Assembly: GCA_965235115.1 (NCBI GenBank)
Contig: OZ249436.1
Location: 31,932,001 to 31,996,000, forward strand
Direction: 5' to 3'
Source of the DNA: Laetmonice hystrix
Taxonomy: Eukaryota
DNA: 64,000 bases
Position numbers and translations under genes: made by a program. A model generated the notes under the pieces. That model saw only the letters and a program-made list of their open reading frames with translations. It had not been told where the DNA came from and did no database searches. Each line of letters opens with the position of its first letter. The stretch's first letter is position 1. Positions 3,614-39,481 of this stretch are shown piece after piece.

Positions 3614-6600
3614 CTGAAACGATTAGAACAATAAGACGGTTGTAAAAACTCGCTCCGACATTCCCGCACTCGCTGCAGTCAGAAAGGGGGCACACCTAGG
3701 GTGGGTAAACGGCACCCCACGTATTCTAAATAATAGAGGGACTGTGGTTTAGAACAATGTAAGGTTCTACTTTGGCTTTTACTGGTGTACTGGTATTGAC
3801 AATGGTGTTTACGATACAGACGTCGGGATTTATTTAGGTGATGTGCGGCAGTTCTATCCCAAATTTCTCCCCTTTATTAAATAATTAAAAACAATATACA
3901 ATGTACAGTGAAAATTAAAATTGTGAAGGGAGTGTCAACAGAACATCTTGTCTTTCTGATTTAATCGTGAAAACAAATCAAATCATAATTGACAGCTCCT
4001 TTTGTGAGTCCAGTCTCGCGAAATTATACGCCTCATGTCCTGTACTGAATAAAATTCAAACTAGGCGACAGAATTAACACTAAAGTACAAACAGCTACAC
4101 GGCCTAGGGCAGTAGCCTACGTACAGGGCACACACTGAGCGCCCTCTAACAGAAGCTGCAAGAACTAGGGTGAAACGGGTATTTCTGAACGAAGGCTGAA
4201 ACCGAAATTGTTAGTAACCACTGGAGCTGCGCTATGAAGGTGATGTGAAGGTGGTGGTAGGGCCAACACAAGTCGAACAGGGACAATGTTGATACTACCA
4301 GGACTATGACCTCTAAAAGCAAACAATAGGTCAAACTGGCCATCAACTAGCAACTGCCATGGCCCTGTCTCTAACCAGGCTTCAGCATTAACAAACACAA
4401 ACCGAGGGTGGGACGTGGAAACAAAATAACCAAAAATAAATAAATCCCAACCTCCCCCAAAACCTTCAAAATGAGAAACATCTTCCGACTCATATTTGTA
4501 AACCCAACACCTCAAAAAAGTCATCAGTTATTTGCAAAAGCTGTTTGTTCTCTTTTGAATGTATCACAAATTTGGAACAGAATAATGATTTTGAACCATA
4601 CTACTTGTAACCCTAAACTTTACCAAAACTCTAGCCAAAAGTATATTCCAGCTTGGAACCGATACATGTACCAGCCCTCTGGCCTGGTCTCCTCGTTACC
4701 CAGGCGCTGCACATTTTATAGGATATTTTTTAAGGTACGGTATGGACGGCTCTGACGGGAGCTGTATAACGAGCGGTGACAGGGGTCAAGTCCCCGTCAT
4801 CCTGATGTCATGGCCGCCAACAATCGGGATGGTTGGCACAGACCGTATCCCGACTACCGACAATCTGTTCATACTCACGAACAGAACGCCCGAACGTACG
4901 GCATGAAAACCATTGTTAACCACATGACGTATTTAAAGGATATACGATATTAAAATATTCAAAATATGGACGGTAAACCTTCTGCAAGGATATAACGGCT
5001 GGTAGAAAATTGCCCCTAATTGTCTCTATTTTAATCTGAGATTCTATATAATTACGGGCATCCTTCAACTTTTCATGTTCATATAAAAAAAGTAAGATGA
5101 ATTGACTGTAAATAATTTATTACCAGTTTTACAGCAAACCTGCTGTCCTTATATAGTTTAGTGAGGAGATTCTTTGGAAACGGTAGCACGGCTGTAGCAT
5201 TTCATATCAGCCTAAAATGGTGCTCGTTATGAATAAAAAAGTTTAGTCGAGATCAACGTTTAGTCTCCGAACATGTATGGATTAAATGTTTCAGCGCCCT
5301 TCATTGTTTTCATTCCAATCCAGACATTGCCGGCTACAGTCACCTCATTAACGTACTGTGGTAGATTTTTGTTTGAACCTAAATCAGTACTCATCAAAAC
5401 GATGCAATCCCTCATGTACCCTACTATATGACAGCCAGACACCACAGTCTTTGAGTACTGTCCGCTCGCAACAACGCCAAGTCAGCTAGCACTTTGGAAG
5501 GACGGCAGATGGACGAAGAAATCCGCCACACACGTTTGCTAAAGGTGAATGTGCGGGGCTGAATTCACATGACTGAGTGAGTGGGGCGACAGCATGTCGA
5601 TCACCATTTAACAGGGGGTAGGGAACACCAACCAGTGCCTAAACACAGCCTCAGTCAGTGGCGTCAACGACTGCATGTACCTCAGGAAACCATACACGAT
5701 GCACCATTGTTTACAGCGGACAACTTCAACTCGGTTAGTCTAGGTCTAAACAATATTAAAAAAATATATATACAATCGGACAAAAGATGGCTACAGGTAT
5801 TATCTGCCAGTCAGTCCCAGATAGTCGTTACACCAGTGTCAAATACTGCACACGTATTAAGTATAGGATTGGGAGGACTGCATCAAGAAATATATTAGGT
5901 CAGGCGAAGATTGTGGGCACGATATACTCACTGTCTACCGAATTACTAGTAGTATCTGACTTTCCTGCAGTGGAGACCCAGCCAAGAAAGAAATAGACAC
6001 ATTAGTGAAAGAACCTGTTACACAGTATGAAAGTAGGGGCACACACACACAGGTCAGACATGGTTGTGTATATGGATGGCAAATACTTACTGCTGTCATA
6101 GCAGAGTAAATGTACGAATGTAATCATTACAGCAAGGCCCAGTGGCCGAGCCTAACCTGACATCATGCCTCATGTTACTGGGAGCGGGTTAAACTAGGCA
6201 AGGTACGGAAAACGTTGCAATAATAACTGGACAATTACCGCCTATTATAATACCATGTTTAAAGGAAAAGAGCTCACTTGCTAATATTTCTACACAAATC
6301 GGCTGTCTTTCGGAAAGATGAATTATGCTTTTCAAAGCCGAGAATCAGTCAGACTACTCGTAAACAAAGATTCACAGTTCACACACATGCTCTGTGACAA
6401 GGCATTAGACAATTAATTTACTTGTTTGTTGTCAAAAATGGAAAAGGTGTTTAAATTTATCTTTCCAAATGACAGCCTCGTACTTGGATGGTTCTCTCTA
6501 CTTACATGTCGCACCATGGGACCATTTCTAATTGCCGATGCAAATACACTTTTGTCTCATGACCCACATACTAACCTCAATTTTCTCAGGGCACAGGTAA

Positions 6601-9317: not shown

Positions 9318-9383
9318 TTGTTACTTCCTGAACGGTCAGATTCCTTTGTTGTGTGAACATGCTCGCCATAGATCTACAAAACC
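9318..9383 (-). CDS. CaMKII: Candidate variable-linker cassette exon (G)FCRSMASMFTQQRNLTVQEVT
   Basis: 66 nt, phase 1-1, open. Branch-like GCTGAC, then cattgccttgctgtctacacacag acceptor; donor CAA|GTATGT. Confidence 0.55.
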
Positions 9384-10929: not shown

Positions 10930-11597
10930 GACAAGCTAACCACAGATGGTTACCATCCCAGGACAAGCCAACCACAGATGGTTACCATCCCGGGACACGC
11001 TAACCACAGATGGTTACCATCCCGGGACAAGCCAACCACAGATGGTTACCATCCCGGGACATGCCAACCACAGATGGTTACCATCCCGGGACAAGCCAAC
11101 CACAGATGGTTACCATCCCAGGACAAGCCAACCACAGATGGTTACCATCCCGGGACATGCCAACCACAGATGGTTACCATCCCGGGACAAGCCAACCACA
11201 GATGGTTACCATCCCGGGACAAGCCAACCACAGATGGTTACCATCCCGGGACAAGCTAACCACAGATGGTTACCATCCCATGGGACAAGCCAACCACAGA
11301 TGGTTACCATCCCGGGACAAGCCAACCACAGATGGTTACCATCCCGGGACAAGCCAACCACAGATGGTTACCATCCCAGGACAAGCCAACCACAGATGGT
11401 TACCATCCCGGGACAAGCCAACCACAGATGGTTACCATCCCGGGACATGCCAACCACAGATGGTTACCATCCCGGGACAAGCCAACCACAGATGGTTACC
11501 ATCCCGGGACAAGCCAACCACAGATGGTTACCATCCCGGGACATGCCAACCACAGATGGTTACCATCCCGGGACAAGCCAACCACAGATGGTTACCA
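10930..11597. repeat. 32-bp minisatellite GGGACAAGCCAACCACAGATGGTTACCATCCC, about 21 units
   Basis: Highly homogeneous tandem units with internal palindromes GATGGT-T-ACCATC and TCCCGGGA. Source of ORFs at 10789-11769. Confidence 0.95.
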
Positions 11598-11938
11598 ACC
11601 AGACAGGGGGAACTTGTCACTGAAGGCGACGTCCACGACACAGGTGTGTGAATACAAAAACACAGAGACGACAAAGATGAGACACAAATATGAAACCAAT
11701 CTGGTGCCAATCAAAAATCCTTTATCGCCGCACCGGTCAGCAAACCTAGCTCTGCTCCTTCAGTGTTAGACCACTGCCTCTTTCCTAACATCTCTCCGCT
11801 ACAATCAGATCCAAAGTTACTGCTCGGACATTGGAAATCTGTCACTGGAAGCCACTGTTGCGACACACCTGGAATCTACAACTCGCATATCGAACCACAA
11901 TGATTGGAAGTTGGGCACTAACATCCCGGCCTGGTGAA

Positions 11939-12075
11939 ATGACTATGATTAAAGATCCTCTCTCAGAATGACTATGATTAACGATCCTCTCTCAGAATTA
12001 CTATGATTAACGATCCTCTCTCAGAATGACTATGGTTAACGATCCTCTCTCAGAATGACTATGGTTAACAATCTT
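11939..12075. repeat. 30-bp tandem repeat (ATGACTATGATTAACGATCCTCTCTCAGA-type), 4-5 units
   Basis: Directly visible tandem units. Confidence 0.9.
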
Positions 12076-12165
12076 CTCATAAATAAGGGATGAGTAGAAC
12101 GACTTTTGTGGGCAGTCTCTTCTCAGACATGCAGGTAAGATGGCCATGATTGGCAGAAACCTACC

Positions 12166-13405
12166 AGTCTGGTAGAATGACTATGATTGGCAGTACCATG
12201 TCAGACAGTCTCGTAGAATGGGTATGATTGACAGTACCATGTCAGACAGTCTCGTAGAATGGGTATGATTGACAGTACCATGTCAGACAGTCTCGTAGAA
12301 TGGGTATGATTGACAGTACCATGTCAGACAGTCTCGTAGAATGGGTATGATTGACAGTACCATGTCAGACAGTCTCGTAGAATGGGTATGATTGACAGTA
12401 CCATGTCAGTCTCGTAGAATGGGTATGATTGACAGTACCATGTCAGACAGTCTCGTAGAATGGGTATGATTGACAGTACCATGTCAGTCTCGTAGAATGG
12501 GTATGATTGACAGTACCATGTCAGACAGTCTCGTAGAATGGGTATGATTGACAGTACCATGTCAGACAGTCTCGTAGAATGACTATGATTGGCAGTACCA
12601 TGTCAGACAGTCTCGTAGAATGGGTATGATTGACAGTACCATGTCAGTCTCGTAGAATGGGTATGATTGGCAGTACCATGTCAGTCTCGTAGAATGGGTA
12701 TGATTGGCAGTACCATGTCAGATCAGACAGTCTCGTAGAATGACTATGATTGGCAGTACCATGTCAGACAGTCTCGTAGAATGGGTATGATTGGCAGTAC
12801 CATGTCAGTCTCGTAGAATGGGTATGATTGACAGTACCATGTCAGTCTCGTAGAATGGGTATGATTGGCAGTACCATGTCAGACAGTCTCGTAGAATGGG
12901 TATGATTGACAGTACCATGTCAGACAGTCTCGTAGAATGGGTATGATTGACAGTACCATGTCAGTCTCGTAGAATGGGTATGATTGGTAGTACCATGTCA
13001 GACAGTCTCGTAGAATGGGTATGATTGGCAGTACCATGTCAGTCTCGTAGAATGGGTATGATTGGCAGTACCATGTCAGATCAGACAGTCTCGTAGAATG
13101 GGTATGATTGGTAGTACCATGTCAGACAGTCTCGTAGAATGGGTATGATTGGCAGTACCATGTCAGTCTCGTAGAATGGGTATGATTGGCAGTACCATGT
13201 CAGATCAGACAGTCTCGTAGAATGGGTATGATTGGCAGTACCATGTCAGACAGTCTCGTAGAATGGGTATGATTGGTAGTACCATGTCAGACAGTCTCGT
13301 AGAATGGGTATGATTGACAGTACCATGTCAGACAGTCTCGTAGAATGGGTATGATTGACAGTACCATGTCAGACAGTCTCGTAGAATGGGTATGATTGGT
13401 AGTAA
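12166..13405. repeat. 41-bp minisatellite GTAGAATGGGTATGATTGACAGTACCATGTCAGACAGTCTC with 37- and 46-bp variants, about 30 units
   Basis: Tandem units visible. Length variants come from loss of ACAG or gain of ATCAG. Degenerate copies lie on both flanks. Confidence 0.95.
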
Positions 13406-13865
13406 CCTTTCAAGAGTCTGGTAGAATGATTGATTGACAGTAACCTGTCCCCAAAGTTTATCAGAATGACTATGATTGAAAGTAATTCTTCACAAACAGT
13501 TGGGACACACCATGATAAAAAAAAAAACCGTTGTGACAGGCTGCTCCCATAATGACACAGCCAGACCAGACCAACTGTGAAAATGAATTGTCGGGCCATA
13601 ACATACCTTATCTTGTAAAGTTGGCGGTCTGTATTAACAAGCGTTTTCGTTCAACAATGCCTGTGAAAAAAGTCACTGGGGTAGCAGTGAAAGCCAGTTC
13701 CAACAGTATCCTCACCTCCCTTTCCCGAGACAAGCAAGCCCTCTATCAACCTGTAGTGGCACCCATCAAACCATCAGTCGCCACCCCTCAAAACAGCCCC
13801 ACTTCAGTTCTATGATTTGTAGTATGACCTCGTACTTCAGATTTCTCGTTCTCTCCACGGTGTTA

Positions 13866-17600: not shown

Positions 17601-17687
17601 CGCGGGTGTCTTGGTCATCTTCTATCGTAGTACTGCTGTCGGTGGATTCCTTGATGCCATCGTTCTTCCTCACTATCATACTACGGC
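17601..17687 (-). CDS. CaMKII: CaMKII linker exon (S)RSMIVRKNDGIKESTDSSTTIEDDQDTR
   Basis: 87 nt, ttgcag/gtaggt ends, phase 1-1, contains the conserved KESTDSSTTIEDD linker motif. Confidence 0.95.
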
Positions 17688-23600: not shown

Positions 23601-24574
23601 GTTTGTTTTGGCAGTATATTGATAGCGTAGCTCAGTATATTCTGGTGCAGACTGGGTATTTGATGCCAGCTACCGACATGTTAACAGTAACGTTATCTGT
23701 CCCATCTCCGAGACGCCAGCTAATGTCCTCCTGCCGGCCGACTGCTTCCCCCTCCCCCCGTCCCGTCTCACCCCCTGCTGCCGGCCCGGCCGGGTGTGTG
23801 TGTGAGACATGAATCCAGTGGCCACCACCAGAATGGTGGGTGCCGTACTGCAGACAGCCAGGAGCGAAGCGACTGACACCAACGCCGCCCCACCCACTGT
23901 CCCGCCAATCCATCCGACAATAATTATTGCAGTCGTACTCACCATCATCATCTTCGTCCTTTTTGTCCAGCAAACTCATAACTCTCCGTAGTAAATCCAT
24001 TGAGCCGTGCTGGGCCAGCCATCCCCGGCACCACCACGAGCAATGTACCGAACAGTGTACCTGCTACACTTCCTCTGTCCCACAACCCATTACATAAGAG
24101 AATCCGTGGCCCGAATCGGCGGCGCTGGGCCGCTCCGACACATTCCGAGTGGTGCTGATGATGGTGGTGCCGATGGTGCGCGGCCGACCGCCGCTGGTGC
24201 ACGAGGCCCTCGGTGCAGTACTGCCAGAGGCTCCTGACTGCATATGGCAGCTACCACACCACCCCGCTGCACATGCTAGCGCATAATGTAGATTTTCGCC
24301 TCAATAGTTGGACCACTCGAGTCGCTGTTGACCCTTCGGAGACAAGACGGCCGTGTGCGGTCAGTGGGCTGCAGCGAGCGGAGCCATCCAACAGGTGTGG
24401 AACACTGGCCACCGTCTGAGACTCTTCCTTCCTTCCTCCCCAGCCGGTGGCCCGTCGTTGGTCGGAAACTATCAGTCACACCCAGCACTGGCGGCGGGGA
24501 TCGGTACACCACTGGGTAATGGTCACACTCCAACTGACACGGATCCGTTCGCCATTAGACCAACTGATCTCAGT

Positions 24575-24955
24575 ACCCCCACCGGTACCTCCGCACCCCC
24601 GCCGGTACCTCCGCACCCCCGCCGGTACCTCCGCACCCTCGCTGGTACCTCGGCACCCTAGCACCCTCGCCGGTACCTCCTACCCCCGCCGATACCTCCG
24701 CACCCCCGCCGGTACCTCCGCACCCTCGCCGGTACCTCCTACCCCCGCCGGTACCTCCTATCCCCGCCGGTACCTCCGCAGCCCCGCTGGTACCTCCGCA
24801 CCCTAGCACCCTCGCTGGTACCTCCGCACCCTCGCTGGTACCTCCGCACCCCCGCCGGTACCTCCGCAACCCCGCCGGTACCTCCGCACCCCCGCCGGTA
24901 CCTCCGCACCCTCGCTGGTACCTCCGCACCCTCGCTGGTACCTCCGCACCCCAGC
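24575..24955. repeat. 20-bp GC-rich minisatellite GCCGGTACCTCCGCACCCCC, about 19 units
   Basis: Tandem units with a GGTACC core. Source of ORFs at 24353-25109. Confidence 0.92.
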
Positions 24956-25855
24956 ACTCACGCCAGTTTCGGGTGGATGAATGTGTACGGTTACATCCAA
25001 CCTTCCTTCTGAAACACCTTGCCACCTGTCGACATCGATGCCTCGGCTGGCCGCCAGAAATTCCAGGCCAACCAATACCACAGTGCCAATCCACACGAAT
25101 ACCACACAATAAGCTAACCGATCCGCCTGACGACGCCCCTGATACCGCCTCGAGCCTTCAGTATATATAGGTCATTCGGGGTCACACTGGGCACTGCAGG
25201 TGGCAAGGTCGTGGATATATTCGAGGAATTCAATCAGAGAAGTCCCATGGTCTTTCTTGGCAGGACCTGCAGGTTGGGAGGTCGCGAGACGGTTGCGTCC
25301 ATTCGATGAGACAGCAGAGCTCTTGATTAATAACGTGGACTGATTTTCTGCTGGGGGAGGGACGGGTGGGCGTACATGTGGCTGCCTGCCTGTCTGGCTT
25401 GCTGATGAACAGGTGGTTGTCATGGAGATGGGTCACACGAACGCGCCTGGACTGTCCTTCCATGTCGCCCCCTGCCAGGACAGGCCAAAGCGTCAACACT
25501 CCACTGTCTGTGAGCAACCAAAGTTCTGTCACAGACACATCTAAAGTCATCGACCCTGCCCGTTAACATTGGGGCTCCCAAAATGATGAAAGCTCAACCT
25601 TTCCCGGGTTAGTTTCCTAGAAAACTGAACGCATCCACAATAGGCGATATGTCTATTGCTTTCCTTAAAGGTTACTGATAACTGAAAGATTAGGGCAATG
25701 GACTGCAATGGAATCAAGGTGTGCTCACCCAAAATGCTTGGTGTGCCACGGTTGAGGGGGAAACGTCCATGAACTCGGGTTCAAACCAGGAGGCAAGGGG
25801 GAGGGGGTTGTGTCGGTGGGGGGTAGGGTTGTCGGGGTTCAGCCAGTCCACATAC

Positions 25856-25942
25856 CTGCCACCTTTGCCGGACCATTGGCAGCTGGCGTAGCACTCACGT
25901 TACCTGTTGGGGGCATGTTACCTGATGGAGCAGCCACTGCAC
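25856..25942 (-). CDS. CaMKII: Candidate linker cassette exon (S)AVAAPSGNMPPTGNVSATPAANGPAKVA
   Basis: 87 nt, phase 1-1, open, Ala/Pro/Gly/Ser linker-like composition. Donor CAG|GTATGT; CTAAC branch motif upstream but a weak pyrimidine tract. Confidence 0.55.
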
Positions 25943-26270: not shown

Positions 26271-29200
26271 GGCATGAACAAAACTGGTCAATGGTCAAGT
26301 ATTCAGTGTGGCCGGCCTATAATCACACCATGCAAAAATCTGTCGTCTTCAGCAAAGTCCTCCACAAAACCGGAAGTCACTTACATCTTCGGCCCAATGA
26401 GCAATTCAGTTCGTGAATCAGTAAAATGTCGACTCACTTTAAATAAAAAGTGTGAAATGGAGTAGTCTTGATTGCCTGAAAGGTCTGGCAAAAGACTTTC
26501 AATGTTTTCAGGGTTTACAAAAAGAGGGACCAAAAATCGCTTTAAGGCCCACGTCAGAAATTTCTTTTGGGAGGGAGCAAAAAGAAAAGGAACTGTAACA
26601 TTGCATTACACTAAGGTATAGCATAACAGTCAAGAGTACTAAAAATATGGGAGGGGCGGGGTCAGCACCTGAAAAACTTCAGAAACACAGCACTGATGAC
26701 AAAGATTGGGCACGAGTGTAACTGAATGAAATGGGGCAGGACAAAACAGAAGAACAGCAGCAACTTCTGGGAGGCCCAAATCTGGCCCAACTACTGCAAC
26801 CAATCAGCTGCAACTTCGACAGATCGTCAACCCGCAAAGGTGCAAAACGTCTGATAGCGGCCAGAAGCCAGAGTCGACGTGACTTCTAATATTTGGTAGT
26901 CACATCTTAATGATCTTTGGAATTCTAGGAAATAGGATAGCCGAGTTGTGTTCAACCAGTAAGTGGGGTTTTTTTTAATGATAAGGCATAAAAAGCTAAG
27001 GCATATAAAAGCTGGTCTTGCCAGAGTTAAGTGCCGAGATATACTATGTGTTTTGTAGCTATGAGCAATACACATCAACCCGGCAGTTTTCTTGTAGTGT
27101 TAGAGTACGCATGCAATACATTATGCCTACATGTGGTTTCTGGTTTAAAACATTTCAATTGATATGATCTTTCCTAGTTGCTTTTTTTTATGATTATTCC
27201 TTGTATAGCTTCAATTATAAATAAATGATTATGAGTGAGTGTATGGTTACAAAGCGGCCTGGCTAAGCCTCCACTATATTTGCACCTCTCTAGGTTTTAC
27301 CCATGGCACTACACGAATTGAGCCAATCGCATGCACAGTTCCTACAATCGGCAAGCTCAAATTCAGGTCATCCACAAGAAAGCGCATGTGTGAGAAAGAG
27401 AAAATGTAAACAATAGAATGGATATAAAACCCGACACATTTGTTTCAGTGCTGGTGTATACGGACGGCTTTGTGACCAGCTAGTATATTAGATGTGCCGT
27501 AGGTGGCGCTGGCGGTTGTGAAGGTGGGCGCGGGTGTTGATAGGATCCGCTATCAGTGCAAAGACTTCCAAAATGTGAAATTCATTAAAGTACTACATGC
27601 AAAATGACTTTCTGCACTGATTTGGATCAAGTCTCTACAAAAATTTCAAAGCGAGGGCCATTTTCTTCAATCTACTTTTCTTGTTCCTTCTGGTTCAAAT
27701 CAATCATGCGGTAATTCCCAGAATTTTCAAGAAGAGAGAATGCAGAAAAGAGCTTCAGACTGGGAATTCAAAGACAAGAATACAATTTATGCTAATGACA
27801 TCAGAGCTGTCAGCCTCGTGCGACAGCTGACAATTCAGTGGATATCCCTTTTGCAAGAGAATGTCACCGTGCTGCACTGTGGAATCACTTCCACACTAGA
27901 GTGGGCAGCAACAGTTTTTTTTTTTTTGCTGTGCCGCCTTCTCCGTAAGGCACTCTCTGTGGGGAACCTTTGAGCAAGCCTTAAGTGTCTATGTTCTTCA
28001 TATCTCATTCAGCCTTGCCTGAATGCTGCCGGTTCCGCGTGGCGGGCGTGAAGGGCCTAGGTCGAGGAGGCGGAGGTGGAGGGGGCGGTCTGGTTTACAT
28101 ACCCGACCTTACCACCGCTAACGGACGCTATCAAAAACTCGATCCGAGGTGGGCATGACTCAACAGTTGAATCAACACTACGGGATTCTGGTCGGTACCG
28201 CAGGCTGGTCTGGTCGGGCAATGAACACCTGGTCTGGTGTATACCAGCCAGCATGTCCAGCTTACAAAGTGCCCGCTTCTTATTGAACCGGACAAGTCAA
28301 CTACATCGACAAGATAGATAGATAGAACGCCCTCTGGCTGAATTTGCCCGGATGCTGTATCGTACTGTACTATACTGTACTGTACAGAATATATCCAGTA
28401 CTGGTTGGGTTGTTTCTAAACAATCATAAATTCCGTCTGAATCTGAATAAAAGTATTTCCAAACCGACTAACAACATTAGTTTGGTACTCAACAATTTAC
28501 AAATAATTTTGTTAATGGGAAATGGGGTTGACGTTGATGGCGCCCTCCATCATGCAAGAAACGGCAGCATAGAGACTACAGGCCTTCACTCAGACTGTGC
28601 TGAAACCTGGTACCAGAGTCTAAACTGAGAGAGCCAAAACTGCCCCTCATTTGAAAAGGTAGTATTAAAAAATCAAAAACCAAATTAGTTATGAATGTAA
28701 ATAATGGTAAGTGTAAAACCGGGCTGGGAAGTATACAGACGAATGTTCACTTACTTTTGTCACCCTTATCACCCTTGTTTACTAGATGGGGTGCAAAGAG
28801 AACAGGTCAAGAACAACATGGTCATTACACAGTTCATGCTACATATATACATTGTACATCACAACGGAAGGCAACAACAGTGGCGCCATCTGCAGCCAAC
28901 GTGAGAGAAACTCAGACACGTTTCGGCAGACTGTGTTGTTCATTCTGCTGAAAGTTAGACCGGCCCATAATTAGCTCCCTGAAGAGGTTTCAAAATCCGA
29001 ATTAAAAAACTCTTGGATTATCAATAATGACGACTGCTGCAAGGGGACCTGGGTTACATTTTACTATGGATACCACTAGGAGGCACGAATGATCCGTCCG
29101 ATTTAAAAATCAGATTGCGTTTCATCGTATAATCAGTCGGGTTGCTGCTTTCTACATAATTAAATAGTTCGAACAAGCATGATTTATAAGCTATTAATAA

Positions 29201-31596: not shown

Positions 31597-33822
31597 ATTA
31601 AAATTAGAACGGATGAACCTCTGATTACAACATAGAGGGAATCTGGTCTCCTGACAACCCCCTGTAAACCCCTTCATAAATCACTGGGACTTCCACGCCC
31701 CCTGGTGGATGTCCGTGACGTTGTCCCAGCAATAATTCACGTTTCTGGAGTTCTAATATTTCGCCATTAAGTCACCAAATTTCGACACGTTTTGACGTCG
31801 ACCTGGCTTAATTTTTGCCTAAAAATAAAAACATAATAGCTCGGGAAAAGATTATTTTCAGCTGGCGACTGAATAATGAGATATTATTCTCATCGTGCCC
31901 CTAGCACTCTGGGGGCGAGGTTCAAGGGGTTGTATATTTGACGATCATTTAAAACTGGTGAGTATTATCAAACGATTCGTGCTCAGTCAGCCATTTTCAC
32001 TGGACAGGCGCTTTTGGTCAACAACTTTTCAACTGATAAACGTTTTTCTGCAAATTACGCTATTTATACGAACACTCATATATTTCAGAAGTCACGGCCA
32101 GATCAGATTCGATCAATGGCTCTTCCTCCCATAATGTCCCATGTATAGTCTGTGACTATAAAACCTCCTGATATTGGGATATATAAATCAGACTCCTGCA
32201 GGCACCTGCTCACTCGGAGCAGCAGGCTGCGGGAATAATACCGCCCTAAAAAAACCCTTACATTTTCTGACACGTTAACTCCTGACACACACTGGACCGT
32301 ACGCACCGCGCAATCCCGATTTACTGACCCATTTCCGAATCCACTGATAACCTGACTGAACTATAGATTTATCAAAATAGACAAGTAGTACTGCCTTCGC
32401 TGCTTCCAAAACGGGAGCCATTCAAGTTTATACGACCTTGGGAAATGGTGGTCACAAAATTACAATTGTAGGTCATTAAGGTTTCTCTCTTATCTATAAT
32501 GTAACAGATCCATATTGTACATGCGCCACCTATCCTCAACACTTGGTACCAGAGGATGTCGAACGGTGGCAGCACAGTTTGCCCTGTCATCCACAACCCC
32601 GCACTTGTAATGGAGGACATGTGTGGACTGTGGGTATCCTCATCCTCATCTGGCAGTGGTAGAAGAGTTTAACACCTTCTCCATACCAGGCCACACGAAT
32701 ACTGCCTAAATTAGGTACAAATCTCGTTTTCTTGTGACTAATGACAAAAAAATAATAATTAAAATTATTGTCTTTTTCAATTCAATGAAACATTTTGCCC
32801 GCAATTTTAGCAAGAAAAACCATGAAATTAAGTAATTTGTGGCGGTATCCTCTATTTAAGGACTCCCAATTATCATATTGAGAATTTTCGATTTTCGAAT
32901 GTCTGTCATGCCCGATAAGAACAGTCAACTGCAAATAATATGTATAAATTTTATACCATAACGAGTTCTTCTGTGATAAGCATGAGATGCCATGTGGGTA
33001 CTGATAAGTTATTTCAAACAAAAAGCGTCCTGCAAAAGTGTTATCCCCCCCCCGACCCAAAAAACAAAAACAAAACAAAGCAAAACCAAAAAAAACCACA
33101 AAAACACGTATTATAGAAAAAAGGTTTCTGTCTACCTACAGGCCATGAGGTTGACTTTGATAATGCATTAGCACACCTGAGCGACTGGTTTTACATGGGC
33201 CGATCAATACTAATATGTATCACCATATCCCACAGGCACTTCATGATATAGAGTAACCCCCCACCAACCCTGCTTCACCTCTGACACCCTGCGTGTTCTC
33301 AATGATCTGCGGCTTTTTATAGGCAGCCTTGATCTCCTTTGAGCTTTATTACGTTAAGGATGACGCACATATTCCATCTAGCATTAGAGCGTGTGAATTT
33401 ATCGGGATTCCATGTGAAGCCGCCAGATACGACTACCACAACTTACGGTTAACCCTGTGCTATAGAAATACAACAATCCCACCATTTATGACTTCTACAA
33501 GCTGCCCACCAAATCTTTGTCTCTCTGGTTGAATCTGTGCCAAATGAAATAAACCGTAAAATACTACCTTTTGTATAGCGTCTGAGCAATACTACAGCAC
33601 GTTCCTGTTCCCGTGTTACACTAAGTAAAGGCCATAAAACGGTTGGAACTTTTTAAACACTGAATTGTACTGATAATGAACAATGATATCAGTTTGTTAC
33701 TGATACTCTCGGATTATCAATGATCAAGTTCTGATTGGGCATTATGTTATCAGTACTGGTATAGCGAACGCGATATGAAACATATCTTCATGACGTGTGT
33801 TGGCTTGCCATGCCATACTCAC

Positions 33823-34158
33823 ATCATTTTCCTTGACATGATTTAACCATTTCTGATTACATGTCGGACAGTACACCACCGATTCATCCCCAGTATTCGG
33901 CGGCGGCGGCGTCTCGCTGACCTGCTTCTGACGGTTCCCGCTGGGTGGCCGATCTCCTTCTGCTGCGAGTGGGGCCATTCTGCAGGAGTCCTGAAGCCAA
34001 CTGTTGCTGGTGGAAGGCCACCTGGCGGAGGTTTCGGTGGGGTCCTTGGTTGACGGTGCTGACTCCTGGCTGTGCGGTGCCATGGGAGTCTTGCTGCGGC
34101 CGGGAGTGAGACAGATCTCGGGGCTGTGGTCCCTAGACCGGCTCGGACTAGAGCCCAT
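33823..34158 (-). CDS. CaMKII: Candidate alternative first coding exon of a kinase-less CaMKII isoform (MGSSPSRSRDHSPE...YCPTCNQKWLNHVKEND, 112 aa)
   Basis: GCCATGG Kozak, MGxxxS motif, GC-rich open frame. Phase-0 donors GAT|GTGAGT (33823) and CAG|GTCAGC (33922) match the phase-0 GAILTT exon. Confidence 0.55.
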
Positions 34159-36199
34159 GGCCCTTACCGTCACGTCGAGCCCCTTGGGTCATCTCTTTTC
34201 AAATCCTCGCAAAAGCATCCTTCTCCGGTCCTTTACCTCCACACACTACGGCGCCCTGCGAGTCTTTAATCAAGCCCCATTGTCGCACGGCCGGAGGTGG
34301 GTTCAATGGTAATTCGTTGAGAAACCCAGCTCACCTTGATTCACACAGGGAAGAATAACACACACTGTATGACTGAATCATGCCCGCGCGCTATGGTATC
34401 TATGGATTGCCCACAGCGCATGATCATGACGACATTGTAATCCAGTTAGTGAAACCAATCTCCGTCGTGAGAAACCAGCGCAGGCTCCGTGCAGCCTCGG
34501 CCGCCATGGCATAATCTGACAGAAGAGATCTCTATAAAAAGAATGTCTCGTTTGCAAGCAGACTGGCACGTTGACTTGCACACGGCAGATTGGTTACATA
34601 GGGGGAGCGAGTCACTATTGATCTCTCCCATGCACACGCAGATTAGAGAGAGGCAGTTAAAAATAAAAGCCGCTGTCCTTGAGCCTGTTCAATGCGCACG
34701 TGGAGAGCTTTGTGCCGGCCTGGTGTTTCCGGCCTGTCTGTCTCTGGGCTCGTTTCCAGCGCCATCCCCGTCAGATCCGACATACGAGTTACGAACAATG
34801 TTCTAGAAAGTCGGCACAGGTGACGCCTAACTCAGAGTGATACACAACCGACCCAGGTGGTCGGGCTTCATACCACCTCATAGACGCCGCATCATTAACT
34901 GCGCCAATTGGAGAATTCTAGCTGCCATGGCAACCATGATCAGACCAGATGAAGGTGGGTCTTTCTCTAGCAATCACCACCACCAGAGGCAGACCCGGAG
35001 TTAGTTCACTTCGTACCGACTGCTGGCTTATACACACCGTCGCCTGACACAGGTATGGGAGGTTGGTCTACAGAACCACAGGTTATATTCTTCACTTATC
35101 GGTGACCAATCAATGCCGTTTGTAAGCACTCCCTGCACCACCACCCGTCCCCCACCGGCCTCAGCAGAAACCTCGCGCAAGCCCACACCATCCTTCCCAA
35201 GAAATCCTAGCTCAAAGTTACCCCCACCGAGACAACCCCACCCCCACCCATATACACGCATAAACTTGTTTCTTGTTTTTCTGTCCCTAAGAAATTACAA
35301 ACTTTTAACTCTCTATCCCCATTCCCGTCTTATTTCTTCCCCCCCTGCCCCCTTAGCCCCAGAGAAGTCAAATCCTTCACGCGCCACTCCCACTTTACAA
35401 CCTTTTACCCCCATCCCCATCAACAGCCTCACAATTACCCCACCTCCAGCACCCCTCACATTTACCCCCCCCCCACACACACACACACACACACCCTCCC
35501 AGGCAGTTCCCACTGACGTAGCTTGGCGAGTCTCTGGCATCAGAAACAGATTATTGACTGTCACCTGTAGTAATACCTATGAAATCATTGAAAGAAGTAT
35601 TGGCTATGTCCGACTATCCGGTTACCAACTCAAGTCTTCTGACTATCCATAATACAGGTTGGTCTGCTCGGTCTATCAGACTAGGGTAAGCTAGGCTCAC
35701 CGACCGCGGGGGCGATGGGTCGTTGGGGGTGATCCAAAATTAGCGCAATGATGATGATTTAATTCCTGATGATAAACTGACGGGCGGGGAAGGGGTCGTA
35801 CCAAGTCACCGAACCTAACCCTACTTGACTAAATACTCGCCTCTTTCCTGTTTAACACCCCTCCCCTTACTTCTGCAACGTCAAGGTGCAAACGTATTCT
35901 CTACGGCAATCTTCCTTTTGATCCTTCTTTAAGTTCTCCCGTCTCGGTATTTAAGTGTCCTATGTACTATCTCTGCTATTAGAGCTTGGACTGCTTTCCC
36001 TTCATGCCTTTAAATCATTTAATCAAATTAATGGTTCACACCGCAGGATTCTGATCCCTGAGTAGGCCTACCTTTCCGAGGACTCATTAAAGTGGCACTA
36101 TTTTTTCGCCCCAGGAAGTTGACCCCTCCCATATAGATCCCCTGCACTTATCGTAATAAATTTGAGTGGAACCAACCCGATTTACTGTGAGAACCGACG

Positions 36200-37730
36200 A
36201 TGTACCATGATGGTATCATGCCTGCGTCTCCGCGCCATTTTGCCATGTTGCCTCGGCTGGGTAACGGGGGAATTCCGTCGATGCGCGCGCATAACCACGT
36301 GACTGCATCTACTTCCCGAGAGGAGCACGCGGAAAATGGCGGACAGCGAACAGGAGGTTAGGCATGTTAGGGGAACGGGCTCCGGGCCCCCTACTGCGGT
36401 CCCTACACACACAGACACCCCCCACCCCGGCCCTCGCCACCTCGCCTGCCGAACGTGTCACTGAGTCAGTGAGTGGCAGCCCGACGAACGGCGGTGCTCT
36501 GAGAGAGACGGCAGCGTCACGGTTCGCCCCGCGGGTGGGAAGGCTGCCGCTGGCACACACTCATTTTGAACTCGCGATTTTTCATAAACTACGCTACGCA
36601 TCGTTATCAGACTTAGACTAGGGTCTACAACATAGAAATATTATATGCTAGTGTAAAGTTCGAGTAAATAGCACCCCTCCTTATGCGCGTGTTAACGGGC
36701 ACCGGGGCCTCGGCAGCTCGGCTGAGTCGCGTAGCACAGAACGAGTAGCACACCGAGCACACTCCTCGCGTAGCAGACTCCTCTGGCAACCGTTTTAGTG
36801 TAGCCACTACAACAAGCCCCGTTTTCTCAGCAGAGGATGAGCGATGAATATTTTATCTTAGTATATAGTCTATAGCCAATACCAGTACTAGTTTGCTCCT
36901 CCACGTACCGAGGTGCGAGCATCGACTGAAATGGCCCAGCGTGTGTTGCGGGGCGTGGGGCGGTGGGGCATTCCCCGGAAGCGGCCTAGCGGGGTATTTT
37001 GGGATGGTTGATGCAATGACGTCAGTCATAGCGCCACTTGTCGACAGCGGCAGATTTGAACTCAACAACAAAAACATGGACAGTGTTTACTCGGGACCCC
37101 GGCTGGAGCACACTTTCACGGTTTTCTCGACATTGCAGCGCCTGTGAGACATCATATTTCACATGTGGGTACAAATTGACTAACTGGAACGGGGGGAGAG
37201 TGACTAGGGGACCTTTAATATCTAAATAAATGCAACGGTAATTCGGTCAACACCTGTTTCAATATTTTATCAATTGTATCCGCAAAAGGCCGACGGAAGC
37301 TGTGAACGAACGAGAACTTCTATATCTTTATCTGAGACAACTGTATTAGGTTTCTGTCGACCTTACTAATCTAGATTTGTATTCCAAATCCAAGAAGTCA
37401 TAAGTTGAACATGACAACCGTGTCAAAATCACTGGCTTCAGCGGCGCAGGCATTTGTTGCTATTGGGCTGGCCGGAAGTGACGTTCCAGGGCCCATCTAT
37501 TGGCTGCATGCCGGGGCTAGGCTAGACTAGACTAAAGTAAAGGCAGCCGAGGCGGGTCGGCAACTCAACGGGGGTCAGTCCCACAGTCACAGTCACAAAA
37601 AACGCAACAGGTCTGTGCTGAACACAGGAGTCTGACACTGCCAGCACCCGCCCGTCAACATCGCACCTCCGAGCGGGACGAATTGAATTCAGGCGGCCGA
37701 AACCCACGGCTGGAGCTTGCCCAGATCCGT
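36200..37730. promoter_or_regulatory. Intronic CpG-rich, promoter-like region
   Basis: YY1-type CGCCATTTTG (about 36233) and AAAATGGCGG (about 36333), full CRE TGACGTCA (37017-37024), ETS/half-CRE CCGGAAGTGACGT (about 37472), ATTGG box (about 37499), dense CpG. Confidence 0.45.
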
Positions 37731-39481
37731 GTCCACCCTGATATCCCCTGACATCACTATGATCGATGGTTTTCGTCTATGTTCTAACAAATTTTGCTTA
37801 TAAGCTGTCAACGTTAACGCTACCTTTCTCTACGCAACTGGTGCGTCAGTTTTTCGTTCCTCCCAAACTGGAGAGCAGTGGTTCAAGCATGCGCAGTGGG
37901 AGATTAGCCCAAGGAGCAGACGCTAATGGCGGCCACCAGCAGCGGAGTAGGTTCTAAGCAGGCTCCGGCACTAAAGTGCTTATATCTTAACTATTTGAGC
38001 ACCAATTGTGTTCAAATCTTTTTTTAAATTGCTTAGAATATCACGGCCTGTGTGCCTGGCCTGTACACACTGGCGGTGGACGTTTCTTTTAAAGCAGACA
38101 TTCGACTCCTCCCATAAACACCTGACAAAGCATTTGCTTGCTATCATACAAATATTAATACCTGGATTATGGCCACATTAATAAGGTGAGCAATTACCAT
38201 TGTCCGTTATACCTTTGTAATCCGAACACCTTTCCCGTCGTGTATGGCCGCAGGAGAAGCAGGTGCAATGTTCTTGTCACTTCCATTGTTCAACTATTGA
38301 ATACTCGCCCCCTCCCCCGTCTTGTTCTCATTTATCAATCCTTCCCCATGTTCTTCTGGTATTTCAAGGTACAACCGCATTTTGCTACCGAATACACCAT
38401 TTATATGTATGGAAAATGAGTTTTTCTTTACTCCCGCACTGTTGAGGGAGTCCACAGGCGTGTTTTTATCAAAAAAATATCCTGCATTCTACATTCTCCA
38501 AAACGATACACCAGCTCTATATTTCTTTAAGAAATGAGATATGCTATTATTTACTTCGCTATGCAATATTTAAGTCGAATGATAAAGTAAAATGAACAGA
38601 ATGATATATCCATCCTTTAAGAATATGACATACATAATATCTGAATCCAAATGGTGCTAATATATCAGGTTCACCCAGATTTTGACTCGGCCCCGTCTGT
38701 AGTATCGATCTGGCACGATATCTTGTTGTGATCCTCGGGGGATTTGGCTTAAATCCTACCTGGTTTGGAGTCCGAGTCGGGCTGACTGCTACGACAGAGT
38801 CATGGCCCCGTGTGTATACGTGTCGGAGCCACACACACAACAACTCTTGTTCCAACTGGCTCGGAGTCAAGCTCAATCAATAGACAGAGGGCACATCTGT
38901 CATACAGGCCTTGGATCACACATGGCAAACATTCAGCCTCACTCATTCTTGTATGTTTGCTCGGTACACGGTGCTATAGGCTGTCAGTTTATACGTATGG
39001 CCATAATACATAACCTACTTTTGACAGGGTACCCGACTGTCAAAACTTAAGTTGTTACGTAAGCTTAACGCTTCAGATTGACGGGTCTAAGCAAACCAGC
39101 CAGTCAGAAGCGTTAAGCGTCAGCTTAACCAAAAACTTAATTTCTGAAAAACTGAGCCCTGAGCACATTGGCAAATTCCTCAGAAATTCCCCTTCCACTG
39201 GACTTGAAAGGGCCTGAATGTGGCTCCATCTGGTGTGTAATCCTGCATCTGTATCCATTTAATCGTCTCCAGACTCTGTGCCCGGTAAACATCACGATGG
39301 AACCTATTCCGCACTCATGTACGTCCAAATTTGTAGAGCTCTTGATACGAAGAATATGAGGAAATCTACCTTGGGTTGATTTTTTTCAGCCCCCCCCCCC
39401 CACCTGAAAAAAACAAACATTCAATTCTACTCCAGACCAACAGTTAGAATTAGTCAGGATTGTGCAAAGTTTGATTCTTAC

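Follow-up and report, generated by a model that had tools for sequence, protein, structure and literature searches.

A candidate intronic first exon for a kinase-less, possibly N-myristoylated CaMKII subunit in Laetmonice hystrix

The window analysed here, a stretch of 64,000 nucleotides from Laetmonice hystrix, contains most of one CaMKII gene on its minus strand, which we located by tblastn with a relative's protein. Kinase exons run from 63015 to 47078 and are followed by an exon that encodes Thr287 together with the first, basic half of the calmodulin-binding segment (39565-39482), an exon carrying Thr305/306 (30065-30023), a conserved linker exon (17687-17601), and the first and second hub exons (3613-3538 and 2988-2894), all on the minus strand. 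The Thr305/306 exon has a phase-0 acceptor and encodes residues 301-314 (alpha numbering), including the beta-clip. Two more hub exons lie 0.6-1.1 kb past the left edge of the window, and the first three exons of the gene lie about 57-59 kb past its right edge. A search of the 627-Mb genome for the hub family yields matches at this one locus and no further CaMKII gene. In sequence, the linker and hub come nearest to annelid proteins, for example those from Capitella and Paralvinella.

Several other features of the gene stand apart from our main subject. One kinase exon occurs in two tandem versions (56633-56559 and 56460-56386, minus strand; 68% and 100% identical to P0007, respectively), which are probably mutually exclusive. 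The linker region holds four open, symmetrical phase-1 candidate exons on the minus strand at 28755-28781, 25856-25942, 9318-9383, and 5932-5964 (27, 87, 66, and 33 nt), the first of which is matched by annelid proteins. Another exon-like segment on this strand (13607-13659) has good splice sites and a stop codon in the linker frame, and is possibly a poison or truncating exon. Long tandem-repeat arrays occupy CaMKII introns at 10930-13440 and 1-760. Upstream of the linker exon at 17687, a short ATG frame at 23943-24000 (minus strand; 19 codons from its first ATG, basic-hydrophobic and then acidic) closes at a strong phase-1 donor, the point at which the mussel model P0163 carries a distinct N-terminus. 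The DNA beside it, at about 24000-25300, is GC-rich and richer in CpG and includes a tandem repeat. This frame, whose coding score is a low 2.8 bits, could represent another first exon for a kinase-less form.

Our main subject lies in the intron, 9.4 kb long, that separates the exons for Thr287 and Thr305/306. Here a reading frame of 112 codons (33823..34158, minus strand), of low complexity and rich in serine, proline, and threonine, forms a candidate alternative first coding exon. A reading made earlier from the sequence alone had described its ATG at 34158 in a GCCATGG context with an in-frame stop upstream, together with a PPPP run and a CPTC motif within the Ser/Pro/Thr-rich region; all of these are present, the stop being a TGA 10 codons upstream and the CPTC motif comprising Cys97 and Cys100. 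The start codon, whose context is strong, and codons 1-7, which match the recognition motif of N-myristoyltransferase (NMT), occupy 34138..34158 (minus strand). Read without splicing, the frame is 138 codons long and meets its stop at 33742.

The same reading contrasted a GC-rich frame with an AT-richer intron. The count of 40 G+C in 60 nt at 34021-34080 is correct, but the contrast is mainly with the downstream flank (40%): G+C is 59.5% in the ORF, 52% in the 1 kb upstream, and 47% in the intron overall. The observed/expected CpG ratio is 0.94 in the 342 nt upstream of the ORF versus 0.68 in the window, and other stretches of the intron reach 1.0-1.1; compared along the intron in this way, no distinct CpG island appears upstream of the ORF. 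Repeats of very high copy number, with a contig depth of up to about 150,000, occupy 36046-39215, 2-5 kb upstream of the ORF. The ORF itself is single copy: protein and DNA searches of the animal's own genome return a single match, and depth is flat at the single-copy level. We therefore rejected a repeat origin.

For a coding first exon to be joined to the rest of the gene, its donor and phase matter. Two donors had been proposed, GAT/GTGAGT (exon end 33823) and CAG/GTCAGC (exon end 33922); both are indeed phase 0, like the acceptor of exon 30065-30023, but they do not appear equally usable. When all 649 GT sites of the intron are ranked, GTGAGT after codon 112 (33817..33822, minus strand) scores 3.75 and ranks 8th. 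This is within the range of the gene's donors (of 17 scored, 7 are lower and one is equal), and GTGAGT also occurs in three of them. GTCAGC after codon 79 (33916..33921, minus strand; rank 21 of 649) is weak and probably unused, with a C at +3, a position held by A or G in every one of the 17 scored donors of the gene. Since the coding score described below is positive over codons 80-112, past 33922, and negative in the tail past 33822, the 112-codon donor is favoured.

The two strongest donor-like sites of the intron lie upstream of the ATG on the minus strand, at 34329..34334 (rank 1 of 649, 176 nt upstream) and 34162..34167 (rank 2 of 649, 9 nt upstream), and use of either would skip the ORF. 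Three short upstream ORFs (34148..34280, minus strand) begin at ATGs at 34280, 34218, and 34192, the last overlapping the main ATG out of frame. Given these stronger donors and the three ATGs upstream of 34158, a transcript starting further upstream could skip the ORF or translate it poorly; on the other hand, the donor cluster near the ATG may mark a real first exon. If an intronic promoter is real but its transcripts mostly use 34334 or 34167, translation could start at Met307 and yield a soluble, hub-only subunit without an anchor. Consistent with this, each donor scores above 33822 and is preceded, at a short distance, by an in-frame stop; Met307, moreover, lies in the context ACCATGC and would give a product of 172 residues. 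However, such a subunit would leave the coding score of the ORF and its silent alleles unexplained, and we regard it as improbable.

We assessed the coding potential of the ORF with several indirect tests, each of them modest (p about 0.03-0.1) and with thresholds chosen after the ORF had been seen. The first is a periodic Markov model for which 50 GPCR and cadherin reading frames from the genome (27,371 codons) served as the training set. At Markov orders 2-4 the ORF is the only positive frame of the six (+16.8, +14.7, and +9.7 bits), and at order 5 it is negative (-4.4 bits). With 40 genes in training, its own frame scores +0.127 bits per codon and the other five frames are negative. Held-out coding chunks average +0.27 bits per codon, with 21% of 38 falling below the ORF, and stop-free control frames average -0.18 (n=65), with three reaching the ORF score, two of which resemble real exons by eye. 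Among GC-matched controls 2 of 16 reach it, as do 10-31 of 300 base shuffles. Given these shuffles and the order-5 score, the result lacks robustness. Only three windows of the intron score above 0.1, two of them inside the ORF, and the 26 codons past donor 33822 are negative. The same model gives negative scores to 7 of 13 true CaMKII exons, and a synonymous-codon score was uninformative, being reached by 17 of the 65 controls. When the 55 ATG-to-donor candidates of the window are ordered by coding score the ORF is second; the top candidate, 23951-23772, ends in phase 0, and the exons that follow it are phase 1.

A second line of evidence comes from alleles, which we obtained by comparing the window with Logan DNA contigs from three DNA runs listed as one sample. 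The contigs are DNA-like, free of splice joints, and carry no evidence for or against expression. Between 33100 and 35450 there are 24 differences, 23 of them in the stretch covered by all three runs. Both substitutions within the ORF are silent, whereas the flanking rate predicts 3.3 amino-acid changes (P about 0.04). The sole indel inside the ORF is 3 nt long and deletes Trp54; the five outside are 2, 13, 7, 8, and 2 nt, two homopolymer insertions at 33256 being excluded from this comparison. With 2 substitutions in 369 nt, the downstream flank is just as sparse, and the low substitution density of the ORF is therefore unspecific by itself. One substitution in the unspliced tail changes a residue.

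The tail bears on whether the frame is instead an unspliced, stand-alone small protein of 138 residues, or an internal cassette exon. The 26 open codons past the donor would suit the former, but they score as non-coding and carry the replacement allele. Against the latter, the upstream stop and the ATG are separated by 30 purine-rich nt that offer no pyrimidine tract for an acceptor. We consider either of these very improbable.

The third line concerns how rare such a frame is. Over 264 kb of sense strand, the ORF is the only frame of 100 or more codons that runs from a first ATG to a phase-0 donor, and the antisense of the same 264 kb holds two. Such a frame occurs in 33 of 1000 resampled introns; with the Gly2 and Ser/Thr6 pattern added it occurs in none of 1000 at 100 or more codons, and in 8 of 1000 at 20 or more.

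Searches for relatives of the ORF returned little. No homologue was found at E<=1 among proteins of 197-2000 aa (34 candidates), the ESM Atlas gave nothing usable for the ORF or for the wasp N-terminus considered below, and Pfam gave nothing near its cut-off. A zinc finger with four ligands is absent from the ORF, where a 7-residue match (E 0.09) is far below cut-off, and the spliced form has no His pair in canonical zinc-finger spacing. In other animals, tblastn of 31 upstream stretches, being those loci among the matches listed that have at least 800 nt upstream, gave no match below E=1; the corresponding introns in these stretches are mostly 59-2165 nt long and have no Met-Gly frame. A missing homologue is what would be expected of a polar, fast-evolving exon with no close relatives among the sequences compared.

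A metagenome scan for the Thr305/306 exon found at least 113 loci, with full flanks for 80. Those listed comprise 39 canonically spliced, 17 genomic without the intron that precedes this exon here, 56 genomic with it, and 1 uninformative, three loci having been classed by eye (two genomic, one truncated). All 39 informative spliced transcripts among the matches listed, none of them known to come from a close relative, carry the canonical exon upstream. Of the 73 genomic loci among the matches listed, 17 have no intron separating the Thr287 and Thr305/306 exons, and thus a first exon of this kind cannot be universal.

Could the frame be an ORF that arose by chance in GC-rich intronic DNA, or the remnant of an old insertion, now beyond recognition, and in either case never used? 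The lack of a homologue or of a Pfam match near cut-off would fit, stops are few in GC-rich DNA, the antisense strand of the same 264 kb holds two comparable frames, and every statistical test is borderline with post hoc thresholds. Against chance, a frame-specific coding score bounded by the donor, silent-only substitutions, an in-frame indel, and a complete NMT motif all coincide on one frame, and length plus motif was never recovered from resampled introns. An old insertion sits poorly with a sequence that is not a repeat, has a single match in its own genome, and shows flat single-copy depth. We hold this explanation to be somewhat unlikely. The claim that the intron contains a coding first exon draws support from the coding model, the alleles, and the rarity of the frame, and the position and phase of the ORF fit; on such sequence evidence, the ORF is probably a real, translated alternative first exon.

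What would this exon produce? When the exons are joined by coordinate, the frame is open to the normal C-terminus and, provided that the 33823 to 30065 splice occurs, predicts a product of at least 290 residues (32.4 kDa), to which the four optional linker exons could add up to 71 more. Given that splice, the 290-residue form has a complete association (hub) domain. The Thr305/306 exon is the first exon common to the canonical and the predicted short form; the kinase and Thr287 exons are not among the exons downstream of the ORF, and exon 39565-39482 is thus no part of the predicted short product.

The N-terminus MGSSPSR, which the sequence-only reading had singled out as a myristoylation pattern, carries the full NMT motif over residues 1-7. 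This motif is M-G-[^DEFRWY]-X-[^DEKR]-[ACGST]-[KR] (Castrec et al., quoted in the available part of PMC9018777), and every position is satisfied. Targeting by a lipid anchor, which had been proposed on this basis, appears less secure: myristoylation alone binds membranes weakly, according to the same available text (PMC9018777), and the exon has no clear second signal. Its first cysteine is at position 16, the net charge across residues 1-25 is +2, and there is no hydrophobic segment (best 19-residue Kyte-Doolittle mean -0.29, GRAVY -1.19). With weak binding per myristate and these properties, anchoring would need several copies per ring or palmitoylation. Its four RxxS/T and five S/T-P sites are of a kind common in such a composition and are not evidence.

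The Thr305/306 exon would bring a further element into the ring. The beta-clip spans residues 301-308, and in the experiments described in the available part of PMC7538161 a beta-clip peptide without basic residues (peptide B) broke hubs slowly, whereas one with three basic residues changed to glutamate (peptide C) did not break them. In the predicted 112-codon form, the retained 301-314 segment has lost its basic residues, and acidic residues precede the beta-clip. On this basis, the segment would likely bind calmodulin poorly and leave hubs intact.

These considerations also bear on a reading in which the 290-residue subunit is made but mainly dilutes active subunits or modulates their exchange, rather than anchoring, and in which a free beta-clip could loosen hubs. 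No strong second membrane signal is present and peptide B still broke hubs, if slowly, both of which would fit. Yet the complete NMT motif would then be incidental, and the subunit, with acidic residues ahead of its beta-clip, is more like peptide C, which was inactive (PMC7538161, in the part available). It seems distinctly improbable to us.

The reading we prefer is that the single-copy, 112-codon frame is an alternative first exon giving a kinase-less, predicted N-myristoylated CaMKII subunit of at least 290 residues, a tentative reading that we place slightly short of probable. An intronic promoter would fire close to the ATG at 34158, donor 33822 would be spliced to 30065 in frame with the linker and hub exons, Met1 would be removed, and Gly2 would be acylated. 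CaMKII subunits co-assemble through the hub, and the short subunit would do so with full-length subunits. The holoenzyme would be held at a membrane by several short subunits per ring or by palmitoylation of Cys16, and each short subunit would occupy the place of one active kinase. Since the hub search found one CaMKII gene here, any variety in the location and activity of the enzyme has to arise from isoforms. If the preferred reading is true, a lipid-anchored, catalytically dead subunit would set both the location of the holoenzyme and the number of active neighbours available for Thr287 trans-phosphorylation.

The sequence-only reading knew of no earlier description of such a form. This stands in part: kinase-less CaMKII is already annotated in C. 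elegans (unc-43) and modelled in other phyla, but we did not find a myristoyl anchor described. A myristoylated or annelid kinase-less CaMKII was not found in the literature searched, and the WormBase and FlyBase isoform tables could hold closer precedents. The available portions of PMC11088445, PMC3668125, and PMC5133387 contain nothing further on kinase-less forms. It is tempting to speculate that animals repeatedly evolved kinase-less, membrane-anchoring CaMKII subunits from intronic first exons, with a hydrophobic leader as the anchor in vertebrates, myristate here, and cysteine clusters in a wasp and a mussel, and that forms joined before residue 301 add a free beta-clip and Thr305/306 to the ring. 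We think this generalization unlikely as it stands; if true, CaMKII targeting and subunit exchange in the neurons and muscle of invertebrates would have a general layer that has been overlooked.

Among known forms, the short isoforms of unc-43 resemble the candidate in coming from an invertebrate CaMKII gene and lacking the kinase domain. Many such isoforms without a kinase domain exist in C. elegans (PMC10457463, citing WormBase), and the available text of that paper assigns them no function. They would offer a tractable test of the idea.

Databases also hold kinase-less CaMKII models with new N-termini, namely P0149/P0151 from Fopius arisanus, the marine transcript P0171, and P0163 from Dreissena polymorpha. 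P0149/P0151 and P0171 join at the same exon as the candidate, and P0163 joins at the linker. P0171 starts with Met-Gly, as the candidate does, and the wasp and mussel N-termini (P0149/P0151 and P0163) have cysteine clusters that could be palmitoylated. These models differ from the candidate in that their sequences are unrelated and form singleton clusters, and some may be incomplete or mis-built. We rejected P0107 and its cluster as precedents, as their short N-termini end like 3' splice sites; the cluster consists of insect-like CaMKII C-terminal halves that keep to one frame along Logan contigs as long as 18 kb, which suggests an intron-poor paralogue. Likewise, P0009 from Paralvinella, with a hydrophobic N-terminus, was not counted, as it may be intron read-through.

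As to the anchor, the candidate shares Gly2, Ser6, and a basic residue at position 7 with the N-termini of Src-family kinases and G-alpha proteins (motif in the available part of PMC9018777). Unlike these, it has no early cysteine and no clear polybasic cluster, so that the membrane binding of each subunit would be weak.

The closest comparison is with alphaKAP, in which the kinase is lost through an alternative promoter, the whole hub is kept, and holoenzymes are directed to the sarcoplasmic reticulum (PMC5882894, PMC9913510, and PMC8155201, in the parts available). The candidate had been proposed as an analogue, and the overall design would indeed be similar: a kinase lost by an alternative promoter (predicted here), a complete hub, a predicted N-terminal membrane signal, and targeting of mixed holoenzymes. 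The resemblance does not extend to the leader, as alphaKAP has a hydrophobic N-terminal segment whereas the candidate has a long polar N-terminus with a myristoylation motif. Nor does it extend to the junction. AlphaKAP joins further downstream, through a short hydrophobic exon, whereas the candidate would be joined before residue 301 and so would keep residues 301-314, including Thr305/306. Finally, alphaKAP is a product of vertebrate CAMK2A, and the candidate belongs to a different lineage, that of its annelid-like linker and hub. By its leader and its gene of origin, the predicted subunit is outside the alphaKAP class; if real, it would represent a second, independent route to the alphaKAP design, achieved with a different chemistry.
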